DNA from: a virus
Lineage: Duplodnaviria > Heunggongvirae > Uroviricota > Caudoviricetes
DNA length: 64,000 nucleotides
Direction: 5' to 3' (one strand)
IMG/VR virus record: IMGVR_UViG_3300045988_154391
Below the pieces are notes generated by a model, which was not told the origin of the DNA, did no database searches, and saw nothing but the letters and a program-made list of their open reading frames with translations. The first letter of the stretch is position 1; each line of letters opens with the position of its first letter. Made by a program: the position numbers and the translations under genes. Of the stretch, positions 2,214 to 53,118 are shown piece by piece.

Positions 2214-2241
2214 CCGATACAAAAAAAGACGCGAGCGGCGT
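2214..2241 (-). terminator. Hairpin (GACGC-N5-GCGTC) followed by a T7 run on the minus strand, inside the leader upstream of the icd-like gene
   Basis: Read directly; lies between the operator-like site at 2374 and the icd-like start at 2055; could mark the 3' end of a short leader or antisense RNA. Confidence 0.3.
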
Positions 2242-2373
2242 CTGTATCGCCTTAGACTTAAGCGGGAGGCCAATCCCGGCACCCGTTTTAATGAGGTGCC
2301 TGATAAGCATAAACCGAAAATGCCTCAAGGCGCAAGAGGTCAGGTTCAATGTAACATCGGCAGTTAAAAAACA

Positions 2374-47928: not shown

Positions 47929-48438
47929 ATGGGGCACAATAACACTAAGGGAAACCGTAAATTTATTAAGGGCCGCTATACTGCCAACGCGGCCAAAGGC
48001 GAACGACTGGTATCTTCTGAATTCCAGCTCACTTTTGCAGGCCATGAAGATATCAGCGTACTGGTTCGCACGTCGCAAATTCCTGAAATGACCCGCGAGG
48101 ATGTGGAGGACTATGGTCCGAATGGTGTGAAGTTCAACCAGCACGGACCAATTCGAAACTCTGGGGAAATCCAGGTCCAGTGCGTGGAGACTATCGAAGG
48201 CGATATTCTTCAGTTCATCAAGGATCGCATTGCGGCGAAGGACTATGTTGATATCACGATGGCTGCTACCCCTGAATCCAAATCTTCCGGGGTTAACGCT
48301 GTGACAAAAGCTGCTACAACAATTGAAATGTTGGACTGCAAAATCTACAGTGATGCAATCGACTTTAGTACCGAAGATGTGACTGCTGCTGTGCGCCCGT
48401 CACTTCGTATCGTCTACAACTGGATTGAGTGGGATTAA
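47929..48438 (+). CDS. Hypothetical structural protein
   Basis: 169-aa ORF followed by a strong terminator. Confidence 0.4.
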   Translation: MGHNNTKGNRKFIKGRYTANAAKGERLVSSEFQLTFAGHEDISVLVRTSQIPEMTREDVEDYGPNGVKFNQHGPIRNSGEIQVQCVETIEGDILQFIKDRIAAKDYVDITMAATPESKSSGVNAVTKAATTIEMLDCKIYSDAIDFSTEDVTAAVRPSLRIVYNWIEWD

Positions 48439-48457: not shown

Positions 48458-48482
48458 AAAGCTCCTTCGGGAGCTTTTTTTA
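48458..48482 (+). terminator. Rho-independent terminator
   Basis: AGCTCC-ttcg-GGAGCT followed by a T7 run. Confidence 0.65.
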
Positions 48483-48609
48483 TAACTATTTTATATAAAC
48501 ATGCATCGATAACATTGTCTGGAGTTTTATGTTAGATTATTAATGTTCTAATAAACTACAATTATTGAGGTAGATGTTTGTGCCTGTACTGTTAAAGGGG
48601 GACTCTAAA

Positions 48610-49206
48610 ATGGCTGTGATTCCAATGTCGTACTCCCCGGGTACTGTCGCTCGTCGATTTTCGATCCTGGACGGAGTTACCATCCAGGGTGTGCTTTACC
48701 AGGTTATATGGGATTCCAAAACCCCATTTGCAGCTGTAATAGAGGCTGCGCCTTCTATTATCGATGGTGATATGCGCCATAAGGTTGTCGCTACTCTTGA
48801 ACTTCAACGTCGCCCGCAGCTTGAAGGCGTACTGGTAAGGAAGTTCTGGGAGGATAGCGATGTTGCCCAGATTGAAGGTATCGTGGTTGATGGAACCGTC
48901 CGGGATGTCGGTTTAGCTACTTTTGTTTACGAAACCGTAGCCTCAAAAGCTGGTGTTGTTTTGCTCAGTGATAATGAGCAATACGAAGGTGGAAAAGCTC
49001 TTTGGCAACACATCGCCCGTCGCTCTTCCGAGCTAAAAGTGTTTATCCTTGACACCGATGCCGCTCAGTATTACCCGTTTGACGGCGAACGTGTTTGCTA
49101 TGACGGGGTAAGTATTCCTGAATCCGAGATATGGAGTGAACACCCAGATCGAAGTAAGCATGGGGTTGTTCTGGTCGCTGAATCCATAATTGGAAATGCG
49201 GCATAG
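48610..49206 (+). CDS. Hypothetical protein, isolated gene with its own AT-rich upstream region
   Basis: ORF 48574..49206 trimmed to the ATG at 48610 (AGGGGGA upstream). Confidence 0.4.
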   Translation: MAVIPMSYSPGTVARRFSILDGVTIQGVLYQVIWDSKTPFAAVIEAAPSIIDGDMRHKVVATLELQRRPQLEGVLVRKFWEDSDVAQIEGIVVDGTVRDVGLATFVYETVASKAGVVLLSDNEQYEGGKALWQHIARRSSELKVFILDTDAAQYYPFDGERVCYDGVSIPESEIWSEHPDRSKHGVVLVAESIIGNAA

Positions 49207-49388
49207 CAGTAAAAAATTCCTTGCTCCTTAAAAGGGGAGAGGGTTAATCTACGTATGCTAAGCATAGATATGGCCTCAGATTAATGTTAAGCGTCTTGCA
49301 GGACGCGTAATGTTATCTGGGGCTTTCTTCTATCTGCTTTTCGGGTAATGCCTGAAGCAGATAGCCTCAAGCACCCGCAACGATTGTA

Positions 49389-49634
49389 TCAATGTCTGGC
49401 TTTTTTTCTATAGAAATCACCTGGAAGGGTGAATATCCACATCAGAAGAAATGTTGCAGCAAACATGATCCCTAATGGCCAGACCGCGCCAAAGAAAATC
49501 CATTCTAAGATCTCCTCTGCTTGTTCTTTGCGGTCGATATCGACAAGCATTTTTCGGCTGATCATGTATACACAGAAGCCAATACAAACATATTCTGCAA
49601 AAGCGATCGCTAACTGTAAAAAATCAGATTGCAT
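49389..49634 (-). CDS. Small membrane protein downstream of repL
   Basis: ORF 49389..49715 trimmed to an internal Met to avoid overlapping repL; two hydrophobic segments. Confidence 0.35.
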   Translation of the reverse strand: MQSDFLQLAIAFAEYVCIGFCVYMISRKMLVDIDRKEQAEEILEWIFFGAVWPLGIMFAATFLLMWIFTLPGDFYRKKARH

Positions 49635-49684
49635 CTCCGACCTCAAACTGAAAACGCCAGGTGACTCCAGATTAGAGCAATCTA

Positions 49685-50559: not shown

Positions 50560-51360
50560 TTAGCGCGTTGCCGCGACAGGTACCAGCACACCAGCATCAA
50601 GCAATCGCTTCATCAGCCACTGCTGACCTTTGCCGGTTATACGAGTCGTGAAAGAAATCCTGCTTCCATTGCTTGTATCGATCACGGTTTCTTTAAGGGT
50701 GAAATACCCACGGGATATGTATTCTTGTTTGGGGACGTTCCTGCGTTCACCGGTTGCGATCAGAATTCCGTTATCACGCAACCAGGTGAAGAGATAGTTT
50801 TGGCCCAGGCCGAGCACTTTGGCATAGTTGCCGATTAGAACCCCGCTGGCGGTAGCAACGCGTTCGGCGAATTCGACTTTAGGTGCATCCATAAGCATTT
50901 TTTGCTCCAGCCGTTGCTTTTGCTCTGCCAGGTCGGCAGCCAAACGGAGAGCTTCAGGGAGACTCTGCGGAATAGCAGGTTGTAATCTTCCAGCTCGATA
51001 GTCGATAAATGTCTGGTTTACCTTCAGCCGAAACGCGGGAGAAATCCAGCCTGCGTACTCCACAGCGAGCAATTCATGGGCAAAAGTGCCGCCGCCACGG
51101 CCTTCGAACGAAACTATGCAATTCTGCATAGTTTCTTTTTCAAGCTCTTCGATGAGCTGTTTGGCTGACAGCGTTCTTAGCCATTGAGCTGGCGCTTTAT
51201 GGGCACCGAGTCCGCTCGCTCTGTGTAGAGCATTAAGGTTGTAACGGCCAGCGCGGTCGGTCGTAATTTCAACACCACAAATAACAGGCAGAGTGGTTGA
51301 AGGATCGACATTTTGATGAAGGTTTGATATATTCATATCCGCATTGAATGTTTGTTGCAT
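50560..51360 (-). CDS. kilA: KilA-like protein (KilA-N domain plus KilAC/ANT C-terminal domain)
   Basis: 266 aa; C-terminal 120 aa paralogous to both Ant-like proteins; operator-like site upstream. Confidence 0.65.
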   Translation of the reverse strand: MQQTFNADMNISNLHQNVDPSTTLPVICGVEITTDRAGRYNLNALHRASGLGAHKAPAQWLRTLSAKQLIEELEKETMQNCIVSFEGRGGGTFAHELLAVEYAGWISPAFRLKVNQTFIDYRAGRLQPAIPQSLPEALRLAADLAEQKQRLEQKMLMDAPKVEFAERVATASGVLIGNYAKVLGLGQNYLFTWLRDNGILIATGERRNVPKQEYISRGYFTLKETVIDTSNGSRISFTTRITGKGQQWLMKRLLDAGVLVPVAATR

Positions 51361-52788: not shown

Positions 52789-53118
52789 AGTTACGGCCTC
52801 GTAAGTTGATAAACAACCTGCGACCCGCTGTCAAACAGGTGGCAGGACGTGACAGGGTTGACAGACTGGCACTTACGAAACCAGCAGGCCGAAGCCTCCC
52901 CATCACGCCCCACCATAATTCGGGCGTAACGTGGTTTTACGGACACAAAAATACCGCAATATCGGAAATGTGCGGTTGTCCGCGTAAGTATTCAGGCTGT
53001 CAAACCTGGTCGCAGAATTTGCTGCGACGGCGGAACTATAAGCCTGAACGATTAAAAGGTCAATATGATGCGAAAAGATAGCATTCGTGACTTAAAAATA
53101 CAAATTTATTAGAGCATT

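Follow-up and report, generated by a model that had tools for sequence, protein, structure and literature searches.

A divergent GNAT-like member of the pmgF family carried as exchangeable cargo between bplB and repL in a P1-like phage-plasmid

In phage P1, the pmgF gene lies directly after the terminator that follows bplB, the final gene of the late structural operon 23-22-21-pmgG-bplB. Its name stands for 'putative morphogenetic function', but a CRISPR interference screen of P1 found pmgF to be non-essential, whereas bplB and pmgG are essential (PMC10695390). The position occupied by pmgF and its neighbours has been defined as 'variable region 5 (rlfA, rlfB, pmgF)' of P1-like phage-plasmids (PMC9603915), and substitutions of rlfA-rlfB-pmgF had already been reported earlier (PMC6906374). 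The variable region itself is therefore already known. Here, the corresponding slot was analysed in IMG/VR virus record IMGVR_UViG_3300045988_154391, a stretch of 64 000 nucleotides (referred to as the window; all positions are those of this stretch) that is, judged from its sequence, a P1-like phage-plasmid. The slot contains a single gene on the plus strand, for a protein of about 200 amino acids (aa), which had been singled out in a preliminary description as a possible accessory gene.

The reading that we favour, and consider somewhat more probable than the alternatives taken together, is that this gene is horizontally exchanged, dispensable cargo encoding a divergent GNAT-fold protein, which probably uses an acyl-coenzyme A (acyl-CoA) to modify its target, be this a host component, a phage component or a small molecule. 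The gene is cargo in variable region 5, the known hot spot of recombination that separates repL from the bplB terminator, and would have been exchanged by homologous recombination in the conserved flanks, at the place where relatives carry the open reading frame (ORF) for a hok toxin. The predicted fold and cofactor-loop motif suggest that the protein would bind acyl-CoA and pass the acyl group on to its target. Its role would be in infection, for example in taking over the host or in countering its defences, and not in the assembly of virions.

The limits of the slot are set by the relatives. Homology to P1 (GenBank accession number AF234172) ends at 48480, the end of the terminator, and restarts at 49671, and between these points P1 carries pmgF (plus strand) followed by rlfB and rlfA (minus strand), where the window has the gene studied here, a sok remnant and an 81-aa ORF. 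Homology to the P1-like MH422554 likewise ends at 48480 but restarts at 49242, and there the hok toxin gene alone fills the gap. Up to 48480, the bplB region is 99.8 % identical to that of P1 and of MH422554. The features of the slot and its flanks in the window are:

47929-48438, plus strand: bplB, tail tube or baseplate gene, part of the conserved backbone (phrog_1120, tail tube, E-value 8.6e-83)
48458-48484, plus strand: intrinsic terminator with an 8-bp stem, a UUCG loop and a T-run, also the left edge of the variable slot
48485-48579, plus strand: AT-rich leader of the cassette, with a Shine-Dalgarno sequence, GAGG, at 48567-48570 and a weak promoter candidate
48580-49206, plus strand: the gene, for a full-length pmgF-family protein with a predicted divergent GNAT-like fold (phrog_7522, E-value 2e-139, and fold model)
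49202-49376, minus strand: hok/sok leader remnant (Rfam RF01794, 94.7 bits against a gathering threshold of 59)
49389-49634, minus strand: 81-aa small membrane ORF with two hydrophobic segments (phrog_3772, unknown function, E-value 1.6e-52; WP_032313323.1)
49671-49681, minus strand: core of the C1 operator Orlf, ATTGCTCTAAT, just after the repL stop codon and the right boundary of the slot relative to P1
49685-50530, minus strand: repL, lytic replication initiator containing oriL, the right flank
50560-51360, minus strand: kilA, following repL

The layout recorded in the preliminary description, namely a terminator, an AT-rich region and a lone plus-strand gene followed by minus-strand genes, is present as described.

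The gene is dispensable and patchily distributed. By BLAST counts over the 680 PLSDB plasmids that carry bplB, the cassette (48481-49241) is found in 125, a P1-type pmgF in 101, and an intact hok directly 3' of the bplB terminator in 251. Among 5426 complete Escherichia coli genomes, the gene is present in 127, with 126 of the 129 matching places on plasmids, and the listed copies are all annotated 'hypothetical protein'. The cassette is 100 % identical to that in the E. coli plasmid pLH50-c-C (NZ_CP100503.1), and the same gene is also found in phages RCS47, SJ46 and vB_EcoM-673R5, with RCS47 carrying an additional IS605-family insertion farther to the right that interrupts the 81-aa ORF. The proposal that this is an accessory gene is thus borne out by the frequency of the cassette, by the other alleles of the slot, by the published variable region and by the non-essentiality of pmgF.

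No meaningful direct or inverted repeats or transposon ends were found bordering the cassette, and transposon-like ends were rejected for this reason. Homologous recombination in the conserved flanks is therefore the simplest route of exchange, and appears more likely than transposition. The breakpoint between the P1-type and window-type slots lies inside Orlf, the core ATTGCTCTAAT being common to both with divergence starting immediately after it (P1 locus L002, 7002-7018), and the 3' part of the operator in the window differs from that of P1. The 81-aa ORF, located downstream of repL, is present in window-type and hok-type elements and absent from P1.

Two further plasmid copies were noted. 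In pM505-b (IncY, P1-like; locus L016, 3516-4928), the same gene is found with 94.6 % DNA identity over the cassette, but the genes that come next are a DUF3892 gene and one of the ParA family instead of the 81-aa ORF and repL, so the right side of the slot is variable too. In the IncF conjugative plasmid NZ_OZ039654.1 (locus L015, 2501-3273), a P1-derived fragment consisting of a partial bplB and the gene lies between insertion sequences. This copy has a frameshift, mutations in both upstream start codons and a 6-bp deletion in the leader.

The gene is related to P1 pmgF in sequence as well as in position. Residues 4-66 of the window protein (numbered here and below in the 198-aa form, which is the form that was modelled) match residues 3-67 of P1 PmgF (AAQ14025.1, 98 aa) with 43 % identity over 63 residues (blastp E-value 4e-16; also found by tblastn), and phrog_7349, the PmgF family, matches residues 3-66 (E-value 5.5e-11). 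Both genes are in the identical slot and strand, straight after the bplB terminator. However, at 98 aa PmgF lacks the GNAT-like core, which corresponds to residues ~67-198 of the window protein (198-208 aa), and its last 30 residues contain at most a short echo of it, ILSDNKE compared with LLSDNEQ in the window. A remnant of the C-terminal half was not found downstream of P1 pmgF using tblastn. As the N-terminal domains match and the short PmgF has no such C-terminal remnant nearby, the window gene is the full-length form of the family, with P1 keeping the N-terminal domain only. This link between pmgF and a full-length GNAT-like family is new. Homology to a conserved P1 structural gene, which would have counted against the accessory-gene proposal of the preliminary description, is not what was found, since pmgF is neither conserved nor essential.

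The assignment of the protein to the GNAT superfamily (PF00583, clan CL0257) comes from the predicted fold and a sequence motif. A match to phrog_7522 (function unknown) spans the full protein. The AlphaFold2 model, built from a 62-member family alignment, has a mean predicted local distance difference test score of 91.8 and a predicted template-modelling (TM) score of 0.88, and its core consists of a strand (84-93), a helix (102-114), a strand (116-119), a helix (126-138) and a strand (142-148), equivalent to strand 4, helix 3, strand 5, helix 4 and strand 6. When the model was compared with the PDB using Foldseek, the top 50 matches were all GNAT acetyltransferases, with probabilities up to 1.00, and included HAT1, NatD, Naa10/50/60, dopamine N-acetyltransferase, AAC(6')-Iy, KacT and RimI. 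In BFVD, 15 phage proteins matched at an E-value of 1e-3 or lower, several of them named 'NAT_SF domain containing', and the structural matches to ~200-aa phage proteins reached an E-value of 9e-13 and a TM-score of 0.74. These proteins, together with phrog_7522, phrog_3307 and phrog_15502, resemble the window protein in sequence or structure, and all are without known function. Searches of PDB sequences gave no significant match; the top PDB profile match was to arylalkylamine N-acetyltransferase, aligned at strand 4 / motif A (E-value 0.079). Of the 62 family relatives, eight match PF00583 at an E-value of 0.1 or lower (best 6e-4), and an 87 % identical E. coli protein carries the NCBI name 'N-acetyltransferase'.

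In GNATs, a Q/R-x-x-G-x-G/A loop that leads from strand 4 to helix 3 is the site that binds the pyrophosphate of CoA. In the window protein, R98-D-V-G101-L-A103 is positioned between the strand at 84-93 and the helix at 102-114. In the 62-sequence alignment, G101 is conserved in 52 sequences, A or G at position 103 in 56, and Y107 in 61, while S120, W132, Y164 and W175 are found in all 62 and D121 in 61; Q124 and G128 are conserved too. With a GNAT fold and the cofactor-loop motif in its canonical place, acyl-CoA binding and acyl transfer would be the most likely activity, and we infer from the model that the protein may bind acyl-CoA and be catalytic.

Several observations weigh against this assignment and its functional extension. 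The Foldseek E-values for the PDB matches are only 3e-3 to 2e-2, with TM-scores of 0.3-0.43, and the PF00583 score of 14.2 bits (E-value 0.054) is below the gathering threshold of 20.7. A direct comparison with one canonical GNAT using hhalign aligns the correct motif, but with a probability of just 16 %. The first position of the motif, R98 (R/Q), is variable across the 62-member family. The N-terminal third of the model is mainly beta, with one short helix (10-16) and then strands up to residue 67, and has no alpha1-alpha2; the strand1-helix1-helix2 arm that shapes the acceptor site of GNATs is not seen in the model. A long C-terminal loop with a family-specific Y-D-G-x-N-I...W motif also sets the window protein apart from the superfamily. 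There is no match in NCBIfam, and none to the defence-system models of PADLOC-DB v2 at an E-value of 1 or lower. Finally, the neighbourhoods of seven homologues and of the copy in jumbo phage RsoM2USA are heterogeneous and mostly uninformative. Predicted fold and motif thus place the protein in the GNAT superfamily as a divergent member, although its Pfam score would not.

The same features could be read as those of a non-catalytic GNAT-fold pseudo-enzyme that binds and blocks a nucleotide signal or a protein of the host or of a competitor. The weak fold match, the variable motif arginine and the missed Pfam threshold would fit, and the invariant W132, Y164 and W175 are in family-specific parts of the protein, including the long C-terminal loop, and could make up a binding surface. 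However, the two small residues of the cofactor loop (G101 and the A or G at 103) have been retained at ~25 % identity, and so has the invariant pair S120-D121 where strand 5 ends. An active site would predict this, and we consider a pseudo-enzyme unlikely.

That the ORF is a real gene maintained by purifying selection is shown, at the sequence level, by comparison with the SJ46 allele, from which it differs by 29 synonymous and 8 non-synonymous changes (ratio of non-synonymous to synonymous rates, 0.08). The plus-strand ORF, the only gene there, is open from 48574 to 49206, and possible start codons are ATG 48574 (210 aa), GTG 48580 (208 aa) and ATG 48610 (198 aa); gene callers differ in which of the three lengths they report. 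Homologues with 30-50 % identity begin MP[VI]L..GDS, with the proline nearly invariant in the family alignment, and (V)PVLLKGDSK is encoded in frame upstream of ATG 48610 in the window. Because the homologue N-termini match this upstream sequence and GAGG is found nine bases 5' of GTG 48580, this GTG is probably the start and the product would be 208 aa. The preliminary description gave a 198-aa gene after a 120-bp AT-rich region. The ORF stands, but the start is probably further upstream, and the AT-rich region, which does have only 22.5 % G+C content (48478-48579, compared with 47.6 % for the whole window), would then be ~100 bp rather than 120 bp.

The family to which the gene belongs is broad, comprising 357 clusters at 50 % identity (E-value of 1e-3 or lower), nearly all of them stand-alone proteins of ~200 aa. 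In a metagenomic phage-like contig, one member adjoins a gene for a DenV-type endonuclease, and genes for a dCMP deaminase and a NADAR protein lie at a distance of a few genes; another member is the copy in RsoM2USA. These lytic phage contexts lead us to lean towards a role in infection. No recurrent partner gene was found in the neighbourhoods of the seven homologues and the RsoM2USA copy, and searching again with the family profile brought up no named member.

AcrVA5 is a phage GNAT that inactivates Cas12a by acetylation, and is likewise small, stand-alone accessory cargo. The role proposed here resembles that of AcrVA5 in kind, though AcrVA5, at ~90 aa, is much smaller than the window protein. 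A bolder version, which we think unlikely, is that the whole ~200-aa family, with members in P1-like phage-plasmids, lytic phage contexts, a jumbo phage and genomic islands, consists of uncharacterised phage acyltransferases that use acylation to disable a host defence or takeover target, much as AcrVA5 does but with a different target, and that P1 pmgF is a decayed, catalytically dead remnant of one.

A different beneficiary, the lysogen, is envisaged if the protein is an acetyltransferase that serves in detoxification or immunity and acts on an antibiotic, a microcin or a bacteriocin, as MccE, RimL or AAC enzymes do. AAC(6')-Iy and RimI are among the fold matches, and a 68 % identical chromosomal homologue is located beside what looks like a bacteriocin-type cluster, with others near Ntox44 or a pyocin-S DNase and immunity gene. 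However, each of these neighbourhoods is a single example and further copies are found among housekeeping genes; resistance-gene annotation was found in none of the plasmid records; and there are relatives in lytic phage contexts, where lysogen immunity makes little sense. A detoxifying or immunity role therefore seems improbable to us.

Details of the chromosomal and other homologues are as follows. The 68 % identical homologue (locus L004, 6001-12638, in a 5-Mb metagenome-assembled chromosome) overlaps the end of a cluster that includes an 85-aa ORF as well as genes for an ABC exporter with a C39 peptidase, an HlyD-like protein and two glycosyltransferases, and that looks like a glycosylated-bacteriocin locus. 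Other homologues are near an Ntox44 toxin gene, or near a pyocin-S DNase and its immunity gene. An 87 % identical copy (815 member sequences) lies next to proB-proA in E. coli chromosomes (loci L020-L023, 7001-9321), at the edge of an integrated island that includes AlpA and a DUF3987 protein, with an integrase at the far end in L023. This copy is convergent with the gene for a 545-aa protein (439 aa in L023), for which no match was found in Pfam (precomputed), PADLOC or NCBIfam, and the 87 % identical homologue itself has no match in PADLOC-DB v2. One relative of 375 aa (P0248; locus L017, 761-1888) has two domains: residues 115-180 match the family core (hhalign probability 97.6 %) and residues 257-313 match the canonical Pfam GNAT above threshold (36.9 bits), which looks like a tandem-GNAT arrangement.

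To the right of the gene, the preliminary description had noted 180 bp of non-coding DNA. Indeed, there is no credible protein gene in 49207-49388, but the region is not featureless, as it includes the RF01794 sok/hok leader match. From 49242 on, this remnant is 99 % identical to the intact hok locus of MH422554, and the alignment breaks at ~49243. The mok start and the Sok-complementary region are still there in the remnant, whereas neither the hok toxin ORF nor its 3' untranslated region (UTR) is, and a tblastn search with the MH422554 Hok found no match in the window itself or at four further loci that carry the cassette. Relative to the hok/sok type I toxin-antitoxin system (RF01794; the HokD-type locus of P1-like plasmids), the window therefore has the leader and sok region without the hok ORF. 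The break in the alignment and the missing Hok ORF indicate that the cassette occupies the place of the hok ORF and 3' UTR, leaving an orphan leader. The modelled hok AUG (49204-49202) and the stop codon of the gene overlap by one base, and from the mok start a 55-aa ORF (49098-49265) now runs on antisense to the gene. A candidate Sok promoter consists of TTGCTC (49221-49226) and TAATCT (49245-49250) separated by 18 nt, with the -10 identical to that of the intact locus, and a Sok-type promoter may thus survive in the remnant. The remnant could be a dead relic or an orphan antitoxin RNA. In the latter case, one possibility is that the toxin-less leader still makes Sok RNA that shields the host from the hok loci of competing P1-like plasmids. 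That the spacer is a toxin-less hok/sok leader, and the likely 208-aa start of the gene, are also new.

The position of the gene exactly at the site of the hok toxin ORF in related plasmids, and the presence of KacT among the fold matches (rank 40), raise the question of whether it encodes a GNAT toxin or abortive-infection effector of the TacT, AtaT or KacT type that has taken over from hok the task of stabilising or defending the plasmid by killing. However, there is no adjoining co-oriented ORF of at least 40 aa that could be the antitoxin, and PADLOC has no match to the protein. Stand-alone copies are found in many genomes and phages, and the stability of the element does not depend on the gene, as can be seen from the P1-type and hok-type alleles. 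A killer function is accordingly very improbable, and dispensable cargo with an enzymatic role remains our preferred reading.

How the cassette is expressed bears both on the 'moron-like', independently expressed layout that was first proposed and on the function implied by the name pmgF. The terminator is strong. Its stem-loop, AAAGCUCC-UUCG-GGAGCUUU at 48458-48477, has 8 pairs and is followed by seven U (48478-48484), with a predicted folding free energy of -12.5 kcal/mol (z = -4.2), and none of 200 shuffled sequences folded equally well. The leader beyond it is 97-99 % conserved in the RCS47 and SJ46 alleles. A scan of 48481-48609 for the sigma-70 consensus found nothing that agreed with it at 9 or more of the 12 positions, and the best candidate, read by hand, is TTGTCT (48515-48520) and TATTAA (48538-48543) with a 17-nt spacer and 8 of 12 matches. 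Both of the pmgF promoters predicted by the annotators of P1 lie upstream of the terminator, and one of them, TTGAAA-17-TACAGT, is present in the window too (48323-48351). The P1vir transcriptome paper does not mention pmgF.

Other forms of control were considered for the leader and rejected. A P1 late (Lpa) promoter would be expected to resemble LP23, with a -22 box, AAGTGACTT, and a -10 of TAAAAT (taken from the P1 record), and nothing similar is found in the leader. For C1, an operator-like 17-mer, AATGTTCTAATAAACTA (48542-48558), has 4 mismatches, and composition-preserving shuffles yield ~2 such sites per window. The best riboswitch match, to SAM-III, is at chance level (22.7 bits compared with a threshold of 45, E-value 0.025), as is the leader fold (z = -0.5). 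At the other end of the gene, a scan from the stop codon to the 81-aa ORF reported no terminator-like site, and the hairpin that follows the stop codon lacks a U-tract, its z-score being only -1.8.

Transcription would therefore depend on read-through of the bplB terminator or on a weak promoter in the AT-rich leader. The description of the gene as moron-like is right with respect to its presence or absence among collinear relatives, but less so in other respects, as there is no downstream terminator and the G+C content of the gene (48.8 %) is close to that of the backbone (47.6 % for the window), only the leader deviating in composition. As for a promoter of its own, the best candidate has 8 of 12 matches and there is no LP23-like box.

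Read-through from the late operon would also suit a morphogenetic role, either in virion assembly or as a structural component, as implied by the name of P1 pmgF. The gene is directly 3' of the operon 23-22-21-pmgG-bplB and co-oriented with it, the scan found no promoter of its own, and the predicted P1 pmgF promoters precede the terminator. However, that strong terminator separates the gene from bplB, pmgF can be dispensed with in P1, at least 251 bplB-positive plasmids have hok there instead of the cassette, and an enzyme-type fold is unlike that of a virion part. The P1 virion-proteome paper has a virion table that includes BplB and PmgG, and the term pmgF is absent from its main text (PMC9024508). 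Together, these points make a morphogenetic function the least credible of those considered here.

Outside the slot, the window has two separate matches to the C4 antisense RNA, at 2110-2197 and 52835-52920 (both minus strand). The first is adjoined by an isrK match (2222-2299, minus strand) and the second, beside icd-ant-kilA, is accompanied by an a1/b1 target match (52989-53041, minus strand), which suggests that the window includes two immunity-I-type modules. Three tRNA genes were also found by Rfam (29395-29467, 31314-31386 and 31392-31464, minus strand).

By itself, the finding is an ordinary one, a hypothetical accessory gene whose function is predicted only and which lies in a known variable region. 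However, P1-like phage-plasmids, which spread resistance genes, are often met with in E. coli and Salmonella, and the function of the cargo in their hot spots is consequently useful to know. The analysis gives a P1 gene family known as 'putative morphogenetic' a new label, that of a dispensable accessory gene resembling an enzyme, and ties it to a broad, unstudied phage family, and it provides a concrete candidate for anti-defence or host-modification screens.

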